Below, in pieces: positions 2,552 to 42,387 of a DNA stretch of 42,400 bases. The notes below the pieces were generated by a model. It was given only the letters and a program-made list of their open reading frames with translations, had not been told where the DNA came from and ran no database searches. This DNA comes from a virus, in the IMG/VR virus record IMGVR_UViG_3300010371_000021, positions 1-42,400 of that record, one strand, 5' to 3'. The first letter of the stretch is position 1; each line of letters starts with the position of its first letter. Position numbers and translations under genes: made by a program.

Positions 2552-2566
2552 AATTGCACTCAATCC

Positions 2567-2595
2567 TTGACATAATGCACCCACTTTGCTAAGCT
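2567..2595 (+). promoter_or_regulatory. sigma70-type promoter with extended -10
   Basis: TTGACA (2567-2572), then a 17-nt spacer ending in TGC, then TAAGCT (2590-2595). Confidence 0.55.
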
Positions 2596-2601
2596 ATAGG
2601 T

Positions 2602-2854
2602 AGTTCAAACGAAGGTAAAAGTTATACAACGCCTTGGCCGCTGAACGACTGCATTACTAGATTCATATCTAGAAAGAAACCGCCGGTAAAGAATGACAGA
2701 TTGGTAGAGATGCCTAAGGCCTGTCACTAGCACTTTCTAGATATGAACCAAACATTAACAGGTTGGCTAGCACTTGTCGCTCTTAGCGGACCCCACCCCC
2801 TCTGAGGGCGGCACGAGCTGGCCAACATATCTAAGCCTATCGAGGAGGTGTAAG
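2602..2854 (+). ncRNA. structured ~250-nt leader/RNA element upstream of a 43-aa ORF
   Basis: A 15-bp perfect helix pairs 2662-2676 TTCATATCTAGAAAG with 2733-2747 CTTTCTAGATATGAA. A 10-bp helix pairs 2762-2771 with 2817-2826. There are competing local hairpins and no ORF. Confidence 0.4.
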
Positions 2855-2986
2855 ATGAGCAAATTAACAACCCGTGTCTTTAGGACTCTAGAAGAAGCAG
2901 ATGTCTTCGTTGACCGTCAGATCGCCCGCCGTAAGCGCGTTAGCTTACTTCGGGACCTGGAACATGTTACTGTGTACGTCGCTTAA
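2855..2986 (+). CDS. small hypothetical protein (43 aa)
   Basis: ATG at 2855 is preceded by a strong GAGGAGG SD (2842-2848). Lies within ORF 2774-2986. Confidence 0.6.
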   Translation: MSKLTTRVFRTLEEADVFVDRQIARRKRVSLLRDLEHVTVYVA

Positions 2987-3021
2987 GTTTGAGAGCCTTT
3001 AAGTGACACTTGTGGAGTACG

Positions 3022-3207
3022 ATGATCGCAACAAACAGAGTTAACAACGTGCGCATACCAGTGGATCTCATCGAAGAGGTCCGCTGTTTGCCACTCAAAC
3101 AACAGGTTCTTACTAAACGGATACATTACATAATTAGGTTAGGGATACGATACCATGCGATTCTGGAGCTGGCAGCACAAAAGAACGAGGAAGAGGTACA
3201 CTCATGA
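3022..3207 (+). CDS. small DNA-binding protein, ribbon-helix-helix-like
   Basis: ATG at 3022 with GGAG upstream. The N-terminal ..VRIPVDLIEEV.. resembles the RHH beta-strand/helix signature. Confidence 0.5.
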   Translation: MIATNRVNNVRIPVDLIEEVRCLPLKQQVLTKRIHYIIRLGIRYHAILELAAQKNEEEVHS

Positions 3208-3270
3208 CCTGTTTTGCCTGTGCCGAAAATGCAATCCTTCCGTGCGTAAATGGATTAGGGGGTTACAGTA

Positions 3271-3495
3271 ATGGACTACTATGAACAAGACGCATATGAG
3301 CCGGATGAGCCACGTACAGCGGTGCATAACAAGCCATTGCTACGGGGAGTGAAAAGACAAACATTGAAGGACTTCATACAGTTTCTAAAGAACAGTGGTT
3401 CTAGTAAGATAGAAGGGGATCTAACGATGACTCTAACTAGTATGTCGTTTAGTGATCTGGAGGAGATGGTGGAGACGTTCTTACACGAGAAGTGA
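3271..3495 (+). CDS. hypothetical protein (74 aa)
   Basis: ATG preceded by a GGGGG SD-like run. Acidic N-terminus. Confidence 0.6.
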   Translation: MDYYEQDAYEPDEPRTAVHNKPLLRGVKRQTLKDFIQFLKNSGSSKIEGDLTMTLTSMSFSDLEEMVETFLHEK

Positions 3496-4074
3496 GAAGG
3501 TGAGTTCTTTAACAATGTAGACCGTAGTTGAGCTGGGAGTAAGAGCATGGGGTACCGGGCCACCCACAACCAGCTTGCTCTCAGCTCCATACGGTCTAAA
3601 TGGTGGATGAATATTGATACCAAGACGGTGCCAGCCAAGCGTACGCACCCGTGAGTTAGATTCTCTCCATGGATGGGGAAAGCTTGGTATCAATACCAAA
3701 TGCTAGTAATACAAAGTGGCGTAGGCTTAGAAGCAGCCATCGCTTAATCAACGCGTAACAGCGATCACCTTTACTAGCACCACACCTACCGGTAAGTGGC
3801 GGAATAGGTAGACGTAGTAGTTTTGTCAGCCAAACAAGAGGCAAATTACGTAGAGGTAGACGGACTGACAACGCCAAGACCTACATGCGGAGTGACTATA
3901 CGAGTAACAAATTGATAGCCATAAATAAAACGGAGACAATGGCTGGCGCTCCATCTCGTCAAATCTCTGCCTTACCAGTAGGTGTGGCCGCATAAGAGAA
4001 CCTTGAGCACTCCACCGTTGAAATAATACGGGCCTGCCAAGAGGAGAGCTCCAGGATTATGCCCGCATAATCCT
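3496..4074 (+). ncRNA. candidate large (~580 nt) structured non-coding RNA
   Basis: No + strand ORF of 60 aa or more. Multiple exact nested long-range helices: 3518-3526/3590-3598, 3530-3539/3578-3587, 3612-3624/3683-3695, 3780-3796/3971-3987 (17 bp with 1 mismatch), 3797-3801/3872-3876, 3823-3829/3865-3871 and 4051-4061/4066-4076. It directly abuts a tRNA. Confidence 0.55.
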
Positions 4075-4160
4075 GGAAGATTGCCTGAGTGGTTTATAGG
4101 GCTTCACTGCTAACGAAGTATACGAAAGTATCATAAGTTCGGATTCTATATCTTCCGCCA
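4075..4160 (+). tRNA. tRNA-Ser(GCU): tRNA-Ser (anticodon GCU), class II with long variable arm, CCA encoded
   Basis: Manual fold. Acceptor is GGAAGAT/ATCTTCC. U8, A14 and G18G19 are present. D stem is CCT/AGG. Anticodon stem is CTTC/GAAG with loop CTGCTAA (GCT at 4109-4111, U33, A37). Variable arm is ATAC-GAAA-GTAT. The T loop is TTCGGAT with an imperfect T stem (one A-C, one G-U). Ends with G73 and CCA. Confidence 0.75.
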
Positions 4161-4259
4161 CCGAATAACTAGACCTTGGTTTGTGCTGGGTTTAGGCGGT
4201 GGCAACTGTATAAATACAGAGTAATTTTATACAGTTGTAGGCTAGTACTGTATAAATAA

Positions 4260-4319
4260 TATAATGTTGTTGCGTTGCAGCACTCCACTCGGTTCTTAAT
4301 GAATCCTGTGGAGTTTTTT
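4260..4319 (+). promoter_or_regulatory. TATAAT box followed by a hairpin and T6 (promoter-proximal terminator or small RNA candidate)
   Basis: TATAAT at 4260-4265. Stem pairs 4282-4288 ACTCCAC with 4308-4314 GTGGAGT, followed by TTTTT at 4315-4319. Confidence 0.35.
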
Positions 4320-4647
4320 ACTTCCATCTTGCTGTATCTATTACAGACTGTTCCGACAGCTGCATATATAGTGGTAATATGTATAGAAAGCGGAAAAGAT
4401 ATGTACCCCCCTTCCCTACAATTCCTCAAGCGTAATAGGGAGTTATTGCGGCTTGAGCATCCTTTGTTTTGGGAATATGGACTCGTGTTGTAGACGTAAT
4501 GACGGTCTTGTAGAGTTTTTGGTTGTATGGTACTGTTCATTTGAGTAACCATTACTAGTCCTGATGTCTACTCATTAACTAAATTTGTAGGGGTCGGGTT
4601 GACTTCCCAGATTAGTTGTCGTATTATACTTACGACTAGTAATGCTT

Positions 4648-4677
4648 GAAACCCCTCGCAAGAAGGGGTTTTCTTTT
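4648..4677 (+). terminator. intrinsic terminator-like hairpin closing the non-coding region
   Basis: GAAACCCCT-CGCAAGA-AGGGGTTT stem followed by a TTTTCTTTT tract. Confidence 0.6.
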
Positions 4678-5226
4678 ATGGCAACATATTTCCGACCTGG
4701 AACGTACGCGTTAGTACCAAATAAGCATTTATTACCGGAAATGAAGGGCGCTCCATTATCCGTGTACATTACACTGTGTTCTCATGCGGACACGGAAGGT
4801 ATTTGCTTTCCAGGTATCAAACGTATTATGGCGATGAGTGGTTACAACAAAGATTCGGTATTCACAGCGTTGAAAAAGCTTATTGAACTGGGGGTCATAG
4901 AACGCACGAAACGTAAATCTAATCTTGGAAATAACGATACAAACCTATACCGTATACTAATAGTAGACGATGTCAAGGGTAGTCCGGTGGAGCAGACTAC
5001 CTACTCTAAAAAACCGGACTACCCTGGTACGGTGGAGCAGACTAGGGTGGTACGGTACACCGGACCCGAACTAACCCATGAACTAACCCATGTAAGAAAG
5101 GATGACATTGAAAAAACAGAAAGCTCAAAACGCATAGATCATCGCGGTGAATATAGCCCTACTGCAGAACGTATGCGTTCAGCTAGACAGAAAGGATTAA
5201 AACCATGGGAGGTACTAACAACATGA
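4678..5226 (+). CDS. winged-helix/HTH DNA-binding protein (possible replication initiator or regulator)
   Basis: ORF 4642-5226. ATG at 4678 lies after the hairpin, with AAGGGG upstream. ..GICFPGIKRIMAMSGYNKDSVFTALKKLIELGVIER.. is wHTH-like. Confidence 0.7.
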   Translation: MATYFRPGTYALVPNKHLLPEMKGAPLSVYITLCSHADTEGICFPGIKRIMAMSGYNKDSVFTALKKLIELGVIERTKRKSNLGNNDTNLYRILIVDDVKGSPVEQTTYSKKPDYPGTVEQTRVVRYTGPELTHELTHVRKDDIEKTESSKRIDHRGEYSPTAERMRSARQKGLKPWEVLTT

Positions 5227-5318
5227 AGAAGTACAAAATTTATAAAGTGCCTGTGATTAAGAAAAGGGAATTTATAAAAATAAAATATTAGAGAATGGTA
5301 GACTTTTATTTTTTTTAG

Positions 5319-5327
5319 TGTTATAAA
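5319..5327 (+). promoter_or_regulatory. extended -10 promoter abutting the terS ATG (leaderless candidate)
   Basis: TGTTATAAA ends 6 nt before ATG 5334. There is no SD. TAGACT lies 17 nt upstream as a -35-like hexamer. Confidence 0.45.
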
Positions 5328-5333
5328 AGTCGT

Positions 5334-5729
5334 ATGGCACATGCAGGTGGTAGACCACTAAAGTTTCAGTCCGTTGAAGAACTCGAGAAGAAGATCGATG
5401 AGTTTTTTGCATCTGGTAAACCACCTCTTATAACATCTTTAGCACTGTGGCTTGACACTGATCGAAAGGTACTTATTGATTATCAGGACCGGCCAGAGTT
5501 TTGTAACACCATAAAAAAGGCAAAATTGCGATGTGAGGAATATGTTGAGGAAACTTTGATGACTACTCGCAATGCAACAGGGGCGATCTTCAACTTAAAG
5601 AACAATTATGGTTGGGTTGATAAGACTGAGCAAGACATTACCAGCAAAGGCGAACAGATAAACCAACCTGTTAGTGAGACGCTTATGACACAGTTTTTGC
5701 AGAACGTGCAGGATAATACGAAACGCTAG
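5334..5729 (+). CDS. terS: terminase small subunit
   Basis: GGRPLKF..EEL...IDEFF, ..SLALWL.., ..IFNLKNNYGWVDK matches the common small-terminase pattern. It sits immediately upstream of terL. Confidence 0.85.
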   Translation: MAHAGGRPLKFQSVEELEKKIDEFFASGKPPLITSLALWLDTDRKVLIDYQDRPEFCNTIKKAKLRCEEYVEETLMTTRNATGAIFNLKNNYGWVDKTEQDITSKGEQINQPVSETLMTQFLQNVQDNTKR

Positions 5730-7345: not shown

Positions 7346-7405
7346 TACTTATTTGTTATGGTACGTAAAACAACGTAAGCAGAAAAGCAGCGAGCACGCT
7401 AACTT

Positions 7406-7669
7406 ATGCAAATTGACACGCTTATCCGTACACCTTACCACCAAATGCCAATCACTATCGTGAACAAGGCTATGAGGCAGAAGGTATATCGTGACCTCTT
7501 TTGTATAGAGTGTAAGTGGCCATTGGCCCAGATCACCGATAAGATCGTGCTCGTGAGCGATGGAGGTATGCAGATTGAGGAGCTAATACCGAACAACTTC
7601 GGTATTGTTGAGACGCACTGTGGAAACCACAGATGTAAGCAATTTTATAGAATGGAGTTTGCGGTATGA
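7406..7669 (+). CDS. hypothetical zinc-ribbon protein
   Basis: CIECKWPL ... HCGNHRC motifs. Confidence 0.65.
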   Translation: MQIDTLIRTPYHQMPITIVNKAMRQKVYRDLFCIECKWPLAQITDKIVLVSDGGMQIEELIPNNFGIVETHCGNHRCKQFYRMEFAV

Positions 7670-8064
7670 CAGATAACGAATTGACAGACGATGAGATCAC
7701 CGGTGGTACCTTTAACGGGCTAGGGCTAAAGGTAAAAAGGGATACGACTACGATTCATCCCCTTAATAACCATTGCCTAATAGAAGTCCTAGACGACTAC
7801 GAAGGTGTGATACGTAATACCGAGAATGAGAATATGCAAAAAGGGAAACTATTAGGTTGCCATTTTGTTCCTTTTCACTTGACAGCTTCAACTGGGTTTG
7901 ATTTATCCCAGTATACGATGTCTGAAGTTAGAGACGACGTTGAAAAGAGTCTCGGCAAGACCGTCTACTGGCAAGAATACGCCGACGCAGGTAGTAAGTT
8001 CACTGTCGATGGCAAGAAGTACGTGCTTGTGCCTTTCTACAGATTGATCGGGTTTGAGGGATGA
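7666..8064 (+). CDS. GroES/gp31-like co-chaperonin candidate
   Basis: IHPLNNHCLIEV resembles GroES IRPLHDRVIV. QKGKLLG resembles RGEVLAVG. GKTVYWQEYADAGSKFTVDGKKYVLVPFYRLIGF resembles GDIVIF..Y.G.E..IDGEEYLIL.E.DILAI. ATGA-coupled start. Confidence 0.6.
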   Translation: MTDNELTDDEITGGTFNGLGLKVKRDTTTIHPLNNHCLIEVLDDYEGVIRNTENENMQKGKLLGCHFVPFHLTASTGFDLSQYTMSEVRDDVEKSLGKTVYWQEYADAGSKFTVDGKKYVLVPFYRLIGFEG

Positions 8065-8261
8065 CCGTCGAAGAACTGAAGGCCGAGTATCACAAGATAG
8101 ACGCTGATAGCCGTAAATGGTTGTCCAAGGTCAACAGCATAAGGGACTACGAGTCGAACGCACACGCTACGATCATGATGAACGCGCACTCACAGATTAA
8201 GAATCATATACTGATGACCATTGGTAAGAAGATCGTAGAAGAAAAAACAGATAAGGAGTAG
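8061..8261 (+). CDS. hypothetical protein (66 aa)
   Basis: ATGA-coupled ORF. Confidence 0.7.
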   Translation: MTVEELKAEYHKIDADSRKWLSKVNSIRDYESNAHATIMMNAHSQIKNHILMTIGKKIVEEKTDKE

Positions 8262-8263
8262 CT

Positions 8264-8515
8264 ATGACCAAAGACACCAAACCCACAGGCAAACAGTTCA
8301 GCCTAACCCCAATAGAAACCCAGCTCTTGCGCGTGACTCAGCAGAACTTTCAGACTGTTCTGAGCAATGAGATGGCTATGATCGCGGTACAGCGTTTGGC
8401 CTACCCCGTGAGCGAATACACTCGTTTTATGTTCAGTTCAGACATGACTGAGGTGACCATTAGCGAGGACGAACCTGTCGAGGATAAGGAAGAAACTGGA
8501 GTTATCGGTGATTAA
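8264..8515 (+). CDS. hypothetical protein (83 aa)
   Basis: AAGGAG SD upstream of the ATG. Confidence 0.75.
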   Translation: MTKDTKPTGKQFSLTPIETQLLRVTQQNFQTVLSNEMAMIAVQRLAYPVSEYTRFMFSSDMTEVTISEDEPVEDKEETGVIGD

Positions 8516-8696
8516 TGTAGAAGAAACGGAACATGATGTGACGATCACCTATACCCGTGCGGATGGTACTGGTAGTCACCAACGGTTTAACAAGTGGGAC
8601 TTAACAGATAAGTCACCCAAAGCAGTTGATAAGAATGCAGCTAAGGCCTTACGTAAACTAGCAGATAGAATTGAAGGAGCTACAACTAATGTCTAG
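8508..8696 (+). CDS. hypothetical protein (62 aa)
   Basis: GTG start with GGAG 8 nt upstream. Overlaps its neighbours by a few nt. Confidence 0.55.
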   Translation: MINVEETEHDVTITYTRADGTGSHQRFNKWDLTDKSPKAVDKNAAKALRKLADRIEGATTNV

Positions 8697-10314
8697 TTCA
8701 GGTATTCCCCCCCGAGAAGTCAAAGACCTCCAATACGGCCTGGACGCCCGCGCCACAGTCCTAGCCGGTGTAACCAAAGGCTACGAAGCCGTAAGTTCAA
8801 CGTATGGCCCTAGTGGTCAGAACGTCCTCCAAGGCATGCCGTTCGGTGATCCAGTCCTAACAAGAGACGGTGTAACCGTTGCCAAGCGTGTAGTACTAGA
8901 AAACCGCGCCGAAAACGATGCCTGGTCTGTCGTCCGTCAAGCTAGTGAGAAGACCAACAAGACTGCTGGAGATGGCACAACTGCCACTGTAGTATTGGCC
9001 TACAATCTCTATAAAGCCGCACACCAACGCGTTGTAGCCGGTGAAAATCCGATGAAACTCAAAGCTCAGATGGCTGAAGATAGCCGCAAGGTGATCGAGT
9101 TTATCAAATCTAAGAGCGTAAAAGCTGATAAACACCTATTAGAAGTAGCCACGGTGAGCTCTGGTGACCCAAACATTGGTGCGTTAGTCTCAGATGTTAT
9201 GCAGGAAATTGGCCTCAACGGTGGCATTACTATCCGTGAGCAGAACTACCCAACAATTGACGTTGAAAAGATCAACGGTTATTACTTCGACCGAGGCTTT
9301 TTCGCCCTAAATCAACAGATCGAGTGGGCAAAACCTCACATTCTAGTCACCCAAAAGCCCCTGACGGCTGCGAGTGACGTACTGCCTCTTATCCAGATGA
9401 TCAACCAACAGACTGAGAAGAAGTTGGTGGTTATCGGTGAGGTTCGGGGTGAGGCACTACAGATTCTACTTGCCAACACTATGGCGCAGGCAGATAGTCA
9501 GGGTCGTCCAGTCCCATTTGAAGGTGTTGTCGTCCCTCCACCGATGTATGGTGAGGAATCCAAGCTATTCATGGAAGACATTGCCATCTATACCGGTGCT
9601 AAAGTATTAACTGATGCAGAGACCACGATCAGTGAGAGCCATTTGGGCAGTGCAGAAAGAGTTCAGGTTTCCCAAGAACGCGCAATCGTATTCAAGGGCA
9701 AAGGAAACGCTGAGGCTATTAGCTCACGGGCCGCTGAGATCAAGAAGAACATCGACAAAGAGACTAACTCGCACGCCAAGGACCAGCTAGAGCAGCGTTA
9801 CAGCAAGCTCGTTGGTAAGATCGCCATTGTAAACGTTGGCGCCTCTACTCAGACAGAGATGGAAGAGCTACGCTTCCGTGTCGAGGATGCTATTGAGGCT
9901 ACTAAGAGTGCTATGGCTGATGGTGTGTTACCTGGTGGTGCCACGGCATTAGTACACGTAGCTTACCTAACAAACCCCACGACCGGACCCGATAACAAGA
10001 ATGTCTTTGGTGGTATATACCCGCGGCCTGCGATTGATACGCTGTTTAGAGAGGCTCTACTCGACACCTTTAAAAAGCTTTACGACAATGCTGGTGAATC
10101 ACCTGACTACAGGGTTAAGCAGATACAGGCTAGTAAATTTGGTATGGGATTCAACCTCCGCAACATGACCGAAGAGCCCATAGACCTAGCCAAGGCAGGC
10201 ATATGGGACGCCACTCGTGCAGTCGTACAGACCATTGAGAATGCAACGAGCGCTGCAGGTGCTCTCCTAACTGTAGGGGCGTTGGTGACGCCACGAGATG
10301 AAGAAGACGCTTAG
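8689..10314 (+). CDS. groEL: GroEL-like chaperonin (Cpn60 family)
   Basis: ATG at 8689 after a GAAGGAG SD. Contains YGPSGQNV, TRDGVTVAK, AGDGTTATVVLA (GDGTT motif) and VEDAIEATKSAMADGVLPGG. About 541 aa. Ends ...PRDEEDA without a GGM repeat tail. Confidence 0.93.
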   Translation: MSSSGIPPREVKDLQYGLDARATVLAGVTKGYEAVSSTYGPSGQNVLQGMPFGDPVLTRDGVTVAKRVVLENRAENDAWSVVRQASEKTNKTAGDGTTATVVLAYNLYKAAHQRVVAGENPMKLKAQMAEDSRKVIEFIKSKSVKADKHLLEVATVSSGDPNIGALVSDVMQEIGLNGGITIREQNYPTIDVEKINGYYFDRGFFALNQQIEWAKPHILVTQKPLTAASDVLPLIQMINQQTEKKLVVIGEVRGEALQILLANTMAQADSQGRPVPFEGVVVPPPMYGEESKLFMEDIAIYTGAKVLTDAETTISESHLGSAERVQVSQERAIVFKGKGNAEAISSRAAEIKKNIDKETNSHAKDQLEQRYSKLVGKIAIVNVGASTQTEMEELRFRVEDAIEATKSAMADGVLPGGATALVHVAYLTNPTTGPDNKNVFGGIYPRPAIDTLFREALLDTFKKLYDNAGESPDYRVKQIQASKFGMGFNLRNMTEEPIDLAKAGIWDATRAVVQTIENATSAAGALLTVGALVTPRDEEDA

Positions 10315-35630: not shown

Positions 35631-35698
35631 TATGTAACACCTCATGCCCATATCACAGACAACTTATTCCATATAACAAACTTTACAAGGAGAACAGT

Positions 35699-35953
35699 AT
35701 GAACGACTATGTAACCAGTCTGATCCGAACGTATGTACCGGTCGCAGTAGGTGCTTTGGCAGCATGGTTAGAGCAAAAAGGCCTAAACCTTGACCCGAGC
35801 GCTACGGCAGGCCTTATGACCTTCCTAACGGCCCTTTCCACTGCTGTGTACTACTTAGTAGTGCGTTTGTTAGAGAAATACGCCTCACCGCGTTTTGGCT
35901 GGCTGCTTGGTTGGGCAAAATCGCCGACATATCCTGCTCCTACTAAGCAGTAG
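35699..35953 (+). CDS. holin-like two-TM membrane protein
   Basis: AAGGAG SD. RTYVPVAVGALAAWL and LMTFLTALSTAVYYLVV hydrophobic helices. Adjacent to the endolysin. Confidence 0.6.
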   Translation: MNDYVTSLIRTYVPVAVGALAAWLEQKGLNLDPSATAGLMTFLTALSTAVYYLVVRLLEKYASPRFGWLLGWAKSPTYPAPTKQ

Positions 35954-35976
35954 GAGCCAAGCATACCCCATATAGA

Positions 35977-36016
35977 GAAACCCCCTGTGCATTACCTGAC
36001 GCAGGGGGTTTTCTAA
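35977..36016 (+). terminator. intrinsic terminator after the lysis module
   Basis: GAAACCCCCTG ... CAGGGGGTTTTC followed by a T-rich tail. Confidence 0.7.
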
Positions 36017-36093
36017 ACAAAGGGTTAAGAGGTATCGAGGACCAATTAACCTGGGGTGTAGTATACCGTTTTTTAATCTAAATGTCCAGGGTG

Positions 36094-36102
36094 TGCTATA
36101 CT
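36094..36102 (+). promoter_or_regulatory. extended -10 promoter TGCTATACT
   Basis: GTGTGCTATACT, the same motif as at 10846 and 36316. Confidence 0.45.
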
Positions 36103-36130
36103 GCTTATGCATCATAAATGGGAGTCTTGT

Positions 36131-36226
36131 ATGCGCAAAGTTACTATTAGTGTTCATAGGCGCACTGCGTCTAAAATCACTGTGAATGTACACAAGCCTA
36201 GTTATTTGGATTATATTCAATATTAG
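36131..36226 (+). CDS. possible mini-ORF (31 aa)
   Basis: GGGAG SD 6 nt upstream. MRKVTISVHRRTASKITVNVHKPSYLDYIQY. Lies between a promoter and a terminator. Confidence 0.3.
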   Translation: MRKVTISVHRRTASKITVNVHKPSYLDYIQY

Positions 36227-36272
36227 GGTATTATCTAAGGGCAGGACTCCCAAGCCTTGCTCTTAGATTGAG

Positions 36273-36308
36273 AACAGCTCAGCCGCATCCTGGGCTGTTT
36301 TCTTTTTA
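36273..36308 (+). terminator. terminator-like hairpin plus T-tract
   Basis: AACAGC...GCTGTT (or CAGCC/GGCTG) followed by TTTCTTTTTATT. Confidence 0.5.
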
Positions 36309-36317
36309 TTGTGGTTG

Positions 36318-36326
36318 TGCTACAAT
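36318..36326 (+). promoter_or_regulatory. extended -10 promoter TGCTACAAT (start of the early/RNA module)
   Basis: GTTGTGCTACAAT motif. Confidence 0.45.
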
Positions 36327-36491
36327 GCCAACAGTCTTAGATCAGTAGTCAAACTATCTAAGGAAGTCGTGTAGCTTAAGATAGGCGCAAAAATAATCCA
36401 GTAAAAAAAGTAACGCCCCCTATGTGGTAGGAGGCGTTGAGATCAGTAGTCTCTTATATCCTACCATTCGGGGTTTGAAAGGTCAAGCCTG

Positions 36492-36776
36492 ATGTCAACA
36501 GAATCTCTCAGTGAAACAGTTAAACATTACAGTGACAGTAATTTAAACATTAAAAACTACAGTGACAGTAAACACAGTAATATCACTGTAACAGACGTTT
36601 TTAAAAACTTAGTAGACGTAATCCCTAATGACGATTATATGCCTTACTACGTAAGTCGATTTAAACAACTAGGTTATACTAGATTTATGGAATTAGTCAA
36701 CAAGGCTCGAAAGTCTGGGAATGATCCACAACGCTTGTTTTTTTGGATGCTTAAGAACAATGAGTTAGTGAGATGA
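36492..36776 (+). CDS. hypothetical protein (94 aa)
   Basis: GAAAGG SD. The C-terminal motif is shared with 27545-27778(-). Confidence 0.7.
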   Translation: MSTESLSETVKHYSDSNLNIKNYSDSKHSNITVTDVFKNLVDVIPNDDYMPYYVSRFKQLGYTRFMELVNKARKSGNDPQRLFFWMLKNNELVR

Positions 36777-37768
36777 TAGACGAGATTATATCCCCAAGCT
36801 ACATGGTGGGTGGTTGTGTTAGGGACGTACTTTTAGGTCGTGAACCCAAAGACTGGGATTTTGCCACGCCCCTGTTGCCAGATGAAGTGGAGGCAAAAGT
36901 ACGGGCATCAGGTCGGAAAGCTCATATCACTGGCAAACGTTTCGGCACCATTGGCTTTAAGTTTGAAGATAAATTTGTCGAGGTGACCACTTTTAGGCAC
37001 GAAAAATATGGTAAAACGCGTAAGCCAGAAGTTCAATTCGTTACTTCGATTAATGACGATCTTGCACGACGTGATTTTACTATTAACGCTATTGCCAAGA
37101 GAGGCACAAAGATCATTGATCCATTTAATGGACGTGAAGATTTACAAATGGGGCTTATCAAGACAGTCGGTAAGCCTACAGAACGATTCAATGAAGACCC
37201 GTTACGTATGCTTAGGGCGGTTCGGTTTCAGGCACAGCTTGGGTTTATTATTGAAGAATATACGCTCGCCTCGATAAACAAGAATGCACATAAGATTCTG
37301 AGCATCAGTCGCGAACGGTGGATGCAAGAACTTGATAAGCTGCTTGTCGCAGATTACGTGGTTCTAGCTCTTCACACACTATTCGCCACAGATCTTATCA
37401 AGTTTTTGTTACCCGAACTCCGTATCCAGATCGGGTATGATCAGAATAGTGATTGGCACGAATATAGTTTAGCTGAACACACTATAAAGACTATTGGGGC
37501 TACTCCCGCTAGTACCACTTTACGTTGGGCCGCCCTATTGCACGATATAGGTAAACCTTTCGTACGTACTGATAATAAGCGTGGAAGTAGCAACTACGTG
37601 TTCCACGATGTTGTTGGTGCTGAAATGATTTACGGTATTGGAAAGAGGCTTAAATGGTCCAATGAACGCTTACAGATGATGCAAGAGCTTGTCAGAAACC
37701 ACCTAAGCGATGACAGCCCATTGCGTAATGCCGACAATTCAAGTAAACGTTTAGGAATAAAATTATGA
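36773..37768 (+). CDS. cca: tRNA nucleotidyltransferase (CCA-adding enzyme) with HD domain
   Basis: GGCVRDVLLGREPKDWDFAT (class II NTase G-box and DxD), RRDFTINA, and HDIGKP (HD). Confidence 0.9.
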   Translation: MIDEIISPSYMVGGCVRDVLLGREPKDWDFATPLLPDEVEAKVRASGRKAHITGKRFGTIGFKFEDKFVEVTTFRHEKYGKTRKPEVQFVTSINDDLARRDFTINAIAKRGTKIIDPFNGREDLQMGLIKTVGKPTERFNEDPLRMLRAVRFQAQLGFIIEEYTLASINKNAHKILSISRERWMQELDKLLVADYVVLALHTLFATDLIKFLLPELRIQIGYDQNSDWHEYSLAEHTIKTIGATPASTTLRWAALLHDIGKPFVRTDNKRGSSNYVFHDVVGAEMIYGIGKRLKWSNERLQMMQELVRNHLSDDSPLRNADNSSKRLGIKL

Positions 37769-40904: not shown

Positions 40905-41221
40905 CACCTACTTACCAGCAACGACTAGAAGCGATTCTACGCGGTATGCGCTTTAGCACTAATTTTGATAGCGTCTTAGAGAAGACTGCCGCTGACGACA
41001 AGGTGTACGCAGAGACGGTAGCTGCTATTAATGCACTGAATGTGGACACCTCGAGGCACATTTGCACTCTGCCCCTCAACATCGTCAACATATCCCGTAA
41101 AGACCTCGGTACTCCTACAGATCGAGTAGTCATAACCGATGAACAGGGCAATAAATACGTAAAAGTAAGTAAATTGAACACTGTTGATGCAGTTGTTCGG
41201 AAGGTGTTGGAGGAGATATGA
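40901..41221 (+). CDS. hypothetical protein translationally coupled to rtcB (106 aa)
   Basis: ATG at 40901 after a GGGGGAAAG SD. ATGA overlap with the rtcB start. Confidence 0.7.
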   Translation: MTPTYQQRLEAILRGMRFSTNFDSVLEKTAADDKVYAETVAAINALNVDTSRHICTLPLNIVNISRKDLGTPTDRVVITDEQGNKYVKVSKLNTVDAVVRKVLEEI

Positions 41222-42387
41222 TACAAATTAACAAAAAACTCTATAGCTGGGCCTCTATCATTGAGCCGAACACTGAAGCACAGGCCATCACGACAAGTAG
41301 TATGCCTTTCATATGGCATCACTATGCGTTAATGCCCGATGCTCATCTAGGTGCAGGAGCGACGGTCGGTTCGGTAATACCTACATTAGGAGCTATCATG
41401 CCTGCCGCCGTAGGTGTAGATATTGGTTGTGGAATGATAGCCATAAAAACCCAATTTACTAAAGAAGATTTAATACTTAGAGATTTAAAGACGCTACGCG
41501 AAAGCATCGAACGTTCCATCCCCCTATCCGCAGGTGCATACAATCTTGACATAAAAGAGACCGCTAAGTCTAAGATCACCGAGTTGGAGGCAAAGGCGGG
41601 CGACAGACTTAAATTCTACGATGGTTTCAAGAACGACTGGCGCGTACAACTTGGAACGTTGGGATCGGGCAATCATTTTATTGAGGTAAGTCTTGACGAG
41701 AAAGATAGCGTATGGCTGTTTCTACACTCTGGCAGTCGAGGTATAGGCAACAAGATAGCCACATATCATATCAAAATCGCCCAGGATTTGTGCAAACGTT
41801 GGTTCATACCACTACCTGACCCAGATTTAGCTTATCTTATAGACGGGACGAAAGAGTTTGGTAATTATATAACTGATCTGAATTGGGCCCAGCTCTTCGC
41901 GTTGCTTAATCGCGAAGAGATGATGGATAGACTTATTAACGATTTTGAGCATTGGATCGGTAGAAAAACTGAAGAACAAGAGAGGATCAATTGTCACCAC
42001 AACTTCACGCTCAAAGAGCATCATTTCGGCAAAGATGTGTGGTTAAGCCGTAAGGGTGCTATACAGGCAGATGCTGGGCGGCTGGGGCTTATTCCTGGGT
42101 CCATGGGTACTGCTAGTTACGTCGTGGAAGGTTTGGGTAATCATCTGGCATTTGATAGTTCTCCGCATGGAGCAGGACGCGTTTATTCACGTTCTGTAGC
42201 ACGCAGAAAGTTCACCTTTGATGATTTAGAAACGGCGATGGAAGGGATTGAGTACCGCAAAACAGATGCATTTCTTGACGAAATACCAGCGGCTTATAAG
42301 GATATCGACCAGGTGATGGAAGATGCAAAGGATTTGGTGAAGGTCAAACACACATTACACCAAATATTGAACGTAAAGGGGGATTAG
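41218..42387 (+). CDS. rtcB: RtcB 3'-phosphate/5'-hydroxyl RNA ligase
   Basis: PDAHLGAGATVGSVIP, VGVDIGCGM, GSGNHFIE, LHSGSRGIGN, CHHNF, PGSMGTASYVV and SSPHGAGR are all hallmark RtcB motifs. Confidence 0.95.
   Translation: MIQINKKLYSWASIIEPNTEAQAITTSSMPFIWHHYALMPDAHLGAGATVGSVIPTLGAIMPAAVGVDIGCGMIAIKTQFTKEDLILRDLKTLRESIERSIPLSAGAYNLDIKETAKSKITELEAKAGDRLKFYDGFKNDWRVQLGTLGSGNHFIEVSLDEKDSVWLFLHSGSRGIGNKIATYHIKIAQDLCKRWFIPLPDPDLAYLIDGTKEFGNYITDLNWAQLFALLNREEMMDRLINDFEHWIGRKTEEQERINCHHNFTLKEHHFGKDVWLSRKGAIQADAGRLGLIPGSMGTASYVVEGLGNHLAFDSSPHGAGRVYSRSVARRKFTFDDLETAMEGIEYRKTDAFLDEIPAAYKDIDQVMEDAKDLVKVKHTLHQILNVKGD

Follow-up and report, generated by a model that had tools for sequence, protein, structure and literature searches.

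What is encoded at positions 3496-4074 of this phage genome, directly upstream of a tRNA-Ser gene (4075-4160)? The stretch lies in IMG/VR record IMGVR_UViG_3300010371_000021, positions 1-42,400 of which were analysed as one piece (hereafter the window). The window covers a complete phage genome (~42.4 kb) that was assembled as a circle, and a Logan contig of the same phage spans its ends. A preliminary description made from the letters of the DNA had seen here a candidate giant non-coding RNA (ncRNA) of ~580 nucleotides (nt), ROOL/GOLLD-like or new. Our comparisons show that its core, positions 3780-3987, is a member of a large phage RNA family, the predicted structure of which mimics the top half of tRNA-Leu. 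The structured character of the entire stretch held up, but homologues were found for this 208-nt module only.

A phage RNA family resembling the top half of tRNA-Leu

Positions 3797-3815 of the window resembled U8 and the D-arm of a class-II tRNA-Leu, and IMG/VR was therefore scanned for the 18-mer GGCGGAAUAGGUAGACGY. The window matches this 18-mer exactly, with GGCGGAAUAGGUAGACGU as the core motif of the D-arm. The scan returned 84 exact matches, compared with the few that we estimate to be expected by chance, and only two of them were true tRNAs (locus L113, called by ARAGORN, and locus L095). The other matches contain the same parts in a fixed order: a variable 5′ stem strand, G-U-GGCGGAAUAGGUAGACGU, a stretch of variable sequence (about 30-220 nt), cAUG, a stem of 6 base pairs (bp), UGCAAAU, the complement of the 6-bp stem, C, and the complement of the 5′ strand. 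The length of the variable region ranges from 15 to ~220 nt across members. In a minority of the matches, including the window, the T-loop is split (UG[ACUAUACGAGU...CUCGK]CAAAU). A search for the split T-loop pattern (GTGACTATACGAGT N45-75 CAAATC) added at least 119 further IMG/VR loci. In total, the exact-motif scans of IMG/VR revealed more than 200 elements in unrelated phages. A scan of genome contigs for the D-arm and the T-loop spaced 30-60 nt apart gave a single match, in a Lactobacillus genome. Exact scans with a 23-mer across the closing helix (P1) and the D-arm and with a 21-mer of the tRNA-Ser gave no match each.

The alignments of the family were seeded by exact-match motifs, and the 5′ strand of P1 was placed by requiring seven pairs; the T-stem, the D-stem and the extension of P1 were not imposed by the seeding. 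In 35 non-redundant core sequences, 92.5% of the alignment cells were paired, as against 68% in shuffles, and none of 500 shuffles reached the observed value. For 40 natural full-length members of the split subtype, aligned with MAFFT, 96% of cells were paired and the covariation score was 0.61, compared with 0.17 in shuffles and 0.08-0.14 when the partners were slid by 1-3 columns. Changes on both sides were found in five of the six T-stem pairs and in all ten P1 pairs of these members. The middle pair of the D-stem is C-G in 61 members, U-A in eight and A-U in one. P1 is kept at exactly 7 bp in the unsplit subtype, and is at least 10 bp long in 60 of 97 split members. P1, one of the helices listed in the preliminary description, therefore covaries across the family, as do the T-stem and the D-stem; the helices of the flanking domains had no homologues with which they could be compared.

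A covariance model of 174 positions (R1) was built from the 40 split members with the window excluded. It matched the window once, at 3787-3980 on the + strand, over model positions 1-174 of 174, with 97.8 bits and an E-value of 4e-23 that is rough because of a shortened calibration. The same model detects the unsplit subtype at 39-55 bits. Using nhmmer, the window matched its closest relative, L241, at E 2e-15 with a nearly identical T-loop insert, as well as about 35 other loci. Rfam models did not recognise the elements in the window or in the other loci examined, and the possibility, raised in the preliminary description, that the RNA is new agrees with its absence from Rfam 15.

These data show the following secondary structure: P1 stands where a tRNA has its acceptor stem and is followed by U8 and a Leu-type D-arm; a 6-bp T-stem stacked on P1 carries the loop UGCAAAU, and there is no anticodon arm. 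They also show that the D-loop, the T-loop and the hairpin within the latter are under strong purifying selection. In the split subtype this hairpin has the consensus ACUAUACGAG...CUCGK (CUCGU in the window) and emerges between G55 and C56. In the window, P1 is the helix that had been described, accurately, as 17 bp with one C-A mismatch. It lies directly 5′ of U8 and 3′ of the T-arm, C3971 pairs with G3796, and the sole mismatch, counting from the junction, is at pair seven, which corresponds to pair 1-72 of a tRNA. Another helix of the preliminary description, 3797-3801/3872-3876, conflicts with the conserved D-arm of the family.

In some phages the element is present two or three times, as copies or variants, in a single tRNA/ROOL island; examples are L053, L134 (3210-3342 and 3535-3634) and L086 (2758-2887). 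In one group of loci (e.g. L138 and L144) a GGCUCGAAAGCC hairpin stands in place of the D-arm, and the T-arm and its insert are kept. In the window, the start of the D-arm (GUGGCGGAA, 3796-3804) could pair, without any mismatch, with the 3′ end of the tRNA-Ser including its CCA (UUCCGCCAC, 4153-4161). This alternative pairing may be due to chance, or may couple the module and the tRNA-Ser in a precursor.

Coding status and folding of the locus

The longest + strand open reading frames (ORFs) in 3496-4074 are 30-36 amino acids. All three types of stop codon occur in each of the three + frames, at 10-17 stops per 193 codons, which is about random density. Therefore, recoding cannot rescue a gene, and coding readings of the stretch (stop-codon recoding or a decayed gene) were rejected. 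An independent gene call of the same phage (L042) also placed no gene between the end of the ORF of 74 amino acids at 3495 and the gene start at 4678. The earlier statement that the stretch is ORF-free was thus correct.

The dense nested complementarity reported earlier was also found. Exact inverted repeats of at least 9 bp within 450 nt number 77 in the whole genome (~1.8 per kb), and nine of this kind, nested, lie in 3400-4700, a density of long nested repeats several-fold above the genome average. The minimum free energy (MFE) of 3496-4160 is -227 kcal/mol on the + strand (z = -5.5 against shuffled controls) and -218 kcal/mol on the - strand (z = -3.8). After correction for GC content, the locus ranks second in stability among 146 windows of 580 nt. 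Sub-domains gave z of -5.5 (+) versus -3.3 (-) for 3512-3604, -3.4 for 3608-3699, -2.4 for 3699-3781 and -5.5 for 4046-4081. The first hairpin domain (domain 1) folds at -44.3 on the + strand versus -37.9 on the - strand, and is 6 kcal/mol better on the + strand because of its G-U pairs. The base pairing of 3496-4074 is real RNA-type structure beyond chance, and the locus is shown to be an island of non-coding RNA on the + strand, located where the early gene block of the phage has its distal end. A + strand structured RNA adjoining a co-oriented tRNA, in the type of island that hosts ROOL and GOLLD, had been described correctly.

The likeness to ROOL or GOLLD themselves did not survive. No Rfam 15 family reached its gathering score anywhere in the window, and in 3000-4700 none of ROOL, GOLLD, HEARO, OLE, Y RNA/YrlA, tmRNA, RNase P and the intron families gave a match even at E ≤ 10. 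The negative result for ROOL is meaningful, since the same tool detected ROOL at 263 bits in L059 and L067.

Genomic distribution of the family

Of 68 unsplit members, 18 have a same-strand tRNA gene no more than 600 nt away, and in some cases the distance is only 10-18 nt. In L086, a tRNA-Ser(GCU) with nhmmer similarity to the tRNA-Ser of the window is located 18 nt upstream of the element. A full ROOL lies immediately 5′ of the element in L059, L067 and L053, and L053 has a second, variant copy between the ROOL and an element of the Sha1 type. The order in L254 is tRNA, skipping-rope RNA, tRNA and element, and in L173 the element is placed after a structured domain of 140 nt. The cultivated Lactobacillus phage Sha1 (HQ141411, 4043-4166) carries the element in an unannotated gap between rinA and the HNH/terminase genes. 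This placement parallels that in the window, where the island is located upstream of a replication-initiator gene (4678-5226) that is followed by the terminase genes. An RtcB homologue (56% identity) is present near the element in L161, and an RNA ligase (RLIG1-like) gene 196 nt downstream of it in L215. With 2-3 of about 200 loci, such neighbours are too rare for an association with the element to be claimed.

Relatives of the phage itself lack the element. In 41 loci from IMG/VR and JGI metagenomes that encode a related terminase (40-60% identity), no homologue of the locus was found using nhmmer or blastn. Five loci from Logan and JGI with a terminase of 77-87% identity also lack the element, and their early regions are completely different. 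Model R1 matched none of the terminase relatives, and upstream of the small terminase gene these share no early-region protein with the window. A blastn search of 3200-4400 against INPHARED phages gave no match. The upstream ORF of 74 amino acids is an orphan among 5.8 billion proteins, and homologues of the replication initiator are found in other contexts, without the RNA. As the relatives lack the element and differ in their early regions, and the upstream ORF is an orphan, the locus lies in a hypervariable early region and is not vertically shared.

The large gaps in the terminase relatives of 40-60% identity (L002 and L011) turned out to be small minus-strand genes or operator regions. 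In the closest relative, L045, whose terminase is 86% identical, the early region has an ORF-free stretch of ~525 nt (3860-4385; z = -4.65) that contains perfect helices, long and nested. Its sequence is related neither to the window locus nor to any of the other loci retrieved. L046 and L047 have a gene-free gap of 1.3 kb (7365-8676) that is less clearly structured. The k-mers common to the window locus and the ORF-free regions of L045 and L046 are near chance expectation. The distant relatives L011 (2690-3800), L008, L009 and L006 share an AT-rich regulatory region with repeated ACCYCTGTTA / TAACAGRGGT boxes and a conserved G-rich/C-rich hairpin, which in L011 and L008 is located upstream of a tRNA-Gln.

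Flanking domains and the adjacent tRNA-Ser

The coordinates of all features of the locus are given in Table 1. All the long helices named in the preliminary description exist. Two of them, 3518-3526/3590-3598 (9 bp) and 3612-3624/3683-3695 (13 bp), are exact as stated. The helix given as 3530-3539/3578-3587 exists, but it contains one G-U pair over that length, so it is not exact, and it extends to 14 bp. The hairpin running into the tRNA start is likewise exact, and 12 bp long. Two helices had been overlooked, namely 3701-3709/3771-3779 (exact, 9 bp) and 3599-3607/4011-4019 (9 bp, one G-U). Domain 3 abuts the P1 helix with zero linker. The candidate helix 3599-3607/4011-4019 would tie domains 2-4 into one multibranch fold. 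A helix this good was seen in 28 of 20000 shuffles of the two segments (p ~0.0014), which were picked after seeing the fold. On this folding model, the domains at 3518-3779 and the module, joined through the candidate helix, may form a single composite RNA of ~0.4-0.55 kb that is followed by the degenerate tRNA-Ser. Domains 1-3 (3518-3779) are significantly structured, and no homologue of them was found. More broadly, neither 3496-3779 nor 3988-4074 had a homologue among the 41 related-terminase loci, the five closer relatives and 202 element-bearing loci.

The tRNA-Ser at 4075-4160 is called by ARAGORN, as the preliminary description had it, but the Rfam tRNA model (threshold 29 bits) gave no match to it even at E ≤ 10. 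By inspection, the loop of its T-arm reads UUCGGAU, with G at position 58, and the T-stem contains an A-C mismatch as well as a wobble pair, G53-U61. This tRNA is degenerate.

Table 1 Features of the RNA locus in the window, in order of position.
Feature	Position	Strand	Description
Domain 1, long hairpin	3518-3598	+	Exact 9-bp stem 3518-3526/3590-3598 around 14-bp stem 3530-3543/3574-3587 with two G-U
Enclosing helix, 5′ strand (candidate)	3599-3607	+	AAUGGUGGA; partner 4011-4019; basis MFE
Domain 2	3612-3695	+	Exact 13-bp closing stem (3612-3624/3683-3695), three-hairpin junction inside; z = -3.4
Domain 3	3701-3779	+	Exact 9-bp closing stem (3701-3709/3771-3779), two small hairpins inside; z = -2.4
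Domain 4, conserved tRNA-like module	3780-3987	+	208 nt; family not in Rfam 15
P1, 5′ strand (acceptor-like)	3780-3796	+	Partner 3971-3987
U8 (3797) and tRNA-Leu-type D-arm (3798-3815)	3797-3815	+	UGGCGGAAUAGGUAGACGU; D-stem 3799-3801/3813-3815, 3 bp
Variable region (anticodon-arm replacement)	3816-3886	+	Hairpin 3823-3829/3865-3871 (inspection and MFE); 3′ end is the conserved cAUG
T-arm	3887-3970	+	6-bp stem GCGGAG/CUCUGC, 3887-3892/3965-3970, one G-U
T-loop	3893-3894 and 3960-3964		UG ... CAAAU, split by insert
T-loop insert	3895-3959	+	ACUAUACGAGUA...CUCGU; base helix 3901-3904/3955-3958
P1, 3′ strand	3971-3987	+	Partner 3780-3796
Enclosing helix, 3′ strand (candidate)	4011-4019	+	UCCACCGUU; partner 3599-3607
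Hairpin	4050-4077	+	Exact 12 bp (4050-4061/4066-4077); 3′ arm overlaps the first three tRNA-Ser bases; z = -5.5
tRNA-Ser(GCU)	4075-4160	+	86 nt, long variable arm, encoded CCA, degenerate T-arm; ARAGORN

Other gene-poor regions and RNA-related genes

The gene-free stretch goes on past the tRNA-Ser to 4677, and 4161-4677 is also structured (z = -4.0). Within it, an AT-rich patch at 4203-4258 contains three copies of ACTGTATAAA(TA), direct and inverted; lying upstream of the replication-initiator gene, these may represent operators or iterons. A promoter-like site (4599-4627) is followed immediately by a strong terminator-like hairpin (4648-4672), with weak resemblance to the rnk leader. The gene at 4678-5226 encodes an O/DnaD-like replication initiator, and the terminase genes come after it. 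Of 13 occurrences of the hexamer GTAGAC in the whole genome, seven are on the + strand in the 1.8 kb of 3517-5350; in L045, three of six copies fall within its 1-kb non-coding region. Repeats of GTAGACGTAAT are found at 4490 and 36612.

Upstream of the locus, 2552-2854 and 2987-3270 are also gene-poor, and the small ORFs between them have no homologues. This region (2552-3270) contains an exact 15-bp inverted repeat (2662-2676/2733-2747) and a long hairpin near 2760-2830. Among + strand windows, 35961-36540 is the most stable in the genome (-195.6 kcal/mol on the + strand versus -159.5 on the - strand). It lies in a gap (35631-36772) between a CHAP lysin and the CCA-adding enzyme, in which a small holin-like ORF, two terminator-like hairpins and extended -10 promoter-like sites were seen by eye. 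Because of these contents, the gap is probably the late/early boundary, and small RNAs may also be encoded there. The phage encodes a CCA-adding enzyme with an HD domain (36773-37768), an RtcB RNA ligase (41218-42387) and a GroEL-type chaperonin (8671-10314), the last of which is kept in all the phages with a related terminase.

Possible function and alternative explanations

We consider, with a probability of roughly 0.6, that the core at 3780-3987 represents a family of phage tRNA-elbow mimics acting in trans, a reading based on comparison of sequences. The RNA would arise as part of the early transcript, together with the neighbouring tRNA(s), and be cut to size by host RNases. The GG of its D-loop (the equivalents of G18 and G19) would dock on the T-loop, giving a tRNA-like elbow on an L-shaped body. 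The elbow and the invariant T-loop hairpin could then be presented in trans to a tRNA-recognising partner, and candidates are RNase P or Z, the leucyl-tRNA synthetase (LeuRS), tRNA-modifying enzymes, the ribosome or an anti-phage tRNA nuclease. The RNA may function as a decoy, sponge or adaptor. A more specific version can be offered only tentatively: an undescribed, widespread class of phage RNA, present in hundreds of IMG/VR contigs, might use its tRNA-Leu elbow and the invariant T-loop hairpin to engage a tRNA-recognising machine of the host or the phage, for instance as a decoy for anti-phage tRNA nucleases or as an adaptor for assemblies of ROOL-type RNA, and be built into a new composite structured RNA of ~0.5 kb in this phage.

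Several points weigh against the mimicry reading. The motif seeding and the seven-pair rule mean that the motif conservation and the inner pairing of P1 were partly imposed on the alignments, and the E-values of model R1 are approximate. With a P1 of at least 10 bp (17 bp in the window) the acceptor end is not free, and this speaks against the window copy being aminoacylated or being trimmed by RNase P/Z in the standard way. The genes downstream of the element are heterogeneous across the family, with no common protein neighbour. The proposed tie to the RtcB and CCA-enzyme genes of the phage found no support across the family: among 202 element-bearing loci (~9 kb each; co-occurrence within ~5-7 kb), RtcB was found in one and a CCA enzyme in none. 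Finally, domains 1-3 and the enclosing helix are known from one genome alone.

The main functional rival is a cis-acting role, and the main structural rival is a single composite RNA, which is compatible with trans-acting mimicry. According to the latter, 3496-4077 would be one new ornate RNA of ~0.55 kb, an analogue of ROOL and GOLLD, with the tRNA-like module as one of its arms. The helices abut with linkers of 0-5 nt, the enclosing helix has a p of ~0.0014, the z of the whole region is -5.5, and elsewhere the module is found directly 3′ of ROOL or, in L173, after the 140-nt structured domain. However, the flanks 3496-3779 and 3988-4074 had no homologue in any of the 41, 5 and 202 loci, most family members stand alone or within tRNA arrays, and very long perfect helices are unusual for the ornate class, so we regard this explanation as doubtful. 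A cis-acting signal seems unlikely. It could be an entry site for RNase P, Z or III, a 3′-end stabiliser separating the early mRNA from the tRNA and late genes, or a leader for downstream genes. Its position at the end of the early block in the window and between rinA and the HNH/terminase genes in Sha1 fits such a role, as do the frequent location of the element ~50-900 nt upstream of a gene and the overlap of the hairpin 4050-4077 with the tRNA 5′ end. The near-invariance of the D-loop, T-loop and T-loop hairpin in more than 200 unrelated phages goes beyond the needs of a cleavage site, however, and long P1 extensions would hinder RNase P and Z. The heterogeneous downstream genes and the many copies inside tRNA arrays also speak against a local signal.

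Two further explanations are much less probable. The locus could be a relic of a decaying tRNA array, consisting of pseudo-tRNAs and random hairpins. In favour of this, the D-arm is identical to that of a true phage tRNA-Leu (L113), the tRNA-Ser beside the module is degenerate, and none of the related-terminase phages carries the element. Compensatory changes nevertheless maintain P1, the D-stem and the T-stem across many phages, the features that are not found in tRNAs (6-bp T-stem, G55 and T-loop hairpin) are themselves conserved, and perfect helices of 13-17 bp are unexpected in decaying tRNAs; decay is accordingly disfavoured as highly improbable. An element acting at the DNA level, such as a replication origin, a packaging site or nested miniature inverted repeats near the initiator and terminase genes, is equally remote. 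The O/DnaD-like initiator at 4678-5226 and the terminase genes after it would suit this idea, as would the enrichment of GTAGAC in 3517-5350, and both strands can fold since most of the long helices are perfect Watson-Crick. Yet the core represents an RNA family that is strand-specific and shares the orientation of tRNAs, G-U pairs make the + strand fold better, and no unit of the locus recurs elsewhere in the genome. Iterons or an AT-rich unwinding stretch are lacking in 3496-4074, such features being located at 4200-4270.

In a literature search on the motif sequences and on tRNA-likeness with ROOL or phage, no earlier description was found. A catalogue of ~10,000 candidate viral RNAs published in 2023 could contain the family unnamed (PMC10690425). 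Mimicry of tRNAs by ncRNAs and odd stable RNAs in phage tRNA clusters are already known. What appears to be new, relative to Rfam 15 and the searchable literature, is the combination of a Leu-type D-arm, a 6-bp T-stem, G55, an optional conserved T-loop hairpin and no anticodon arm. The family adds one more conserved resident, of readable architecture, to phage tRNA islands, and explains an intergenic region that recurs as "empty" before the late genes in the annotation of many phages. To our knowledge, none of ROOL, GOLLD and skipping-rope RNA has a known function. The module may inform the role of ROOL-type RNAs, because it is often found directly 3′ of ROOL. If it is a true tRNA decoy or adaptor, it would bear on the tRNA-centred conflict between phages and bacterial defences.

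Comparison with known RNAs

The closest resemblance is to class-II tRNA-Leu. The family shares with it U8, a T-arm stacked directly on the closing stem, residence in tRNA arrays and, in the unsplit subtype, a 7-bp stem, and its D-arm is identical to that of phage tRNA-Leu genes (GGCGGAAUAGGUAGACG). Unlike tRNA-Leu, it has no anticodon arm, its T-stem is 6 bp instead of 5, its P1 is frequently at least 10 bp long, and its T-loop is UGCAAAU (G at position 55), often split by a hairpin of 57-87 nt. Indeed, relaxed ARAGORN found the tRNA-Ser alone, and the Rfam tRNA model did not match 3780-3987 as a canonical tRNA. A73 is the main identity element for LeuRS, and the identity of tRNA-Leu resides in A73 and the tertiary core, not in the anticodon. 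Among unsplit members whose P1 stops at 7 bp, the next base is A in 12 of 14, followed by U-rich sequence. By analogy with tRNA-Leu identity and with known RNase Z substrates, this end would look like a CCA-less leucine-type acceptor end.

The topology of the module is also that of the tRNA-like domain of tmRNA, in which the 5′ and 3′ ends form an acceptor-like stem flanked by a D-like element and the T-arm, with a large insert in place of the anticodon arm. The D-arm of the module, however, has a true stem and is of Leu type, not Ala type, and the module has neither a tag reading frame nor a conserved ACCA end; neither ARAGORN nor Rfam found a tmRNA. YrlA and other bacterial Y RNAs are ncRNAs with a tRNA-like D/T-arm module, and in enterobacteria YrlA is genetically linked to rtcB. 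Their topology is the opposite, in that the two ends of YrlA lie in the Ro-binding stem, and the window has no Rfam match to them.

Among the large phage RNAs, ROOL (RF03087) is similar in being a phage/prophage ncRNA of ~580 nt near tRNA islands. It differs in that the window stays below its 99.1-bit threshold, with no match at E ≤ 10, and the 208 nt with homologues are unrelated to it. GOLLD (RF01998) is also a large phage RNA near tRNAs, and sometimes has a tRNA embedded in a variable linker (Kretsch et al. 2025, PMC12286853); the window shows no match to its model and lacks its conserved 3′ domain. Within phage tRNA clusters, a precedent for odd stable RNAs is given by "species 1 and 2" of T4 (rnaC and rnaD), to which no relationship is claimed here. 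These are stable RNAs of tRNA size or larger and of unknown function, which are processed with the tRNAs. Skipping-rope RNA (RF02924) differs from the family in fold and sequence and has no match in the window, but it too is a phage-associated structured RNA located between tRNAs, and in L254 it adjoins a family member.

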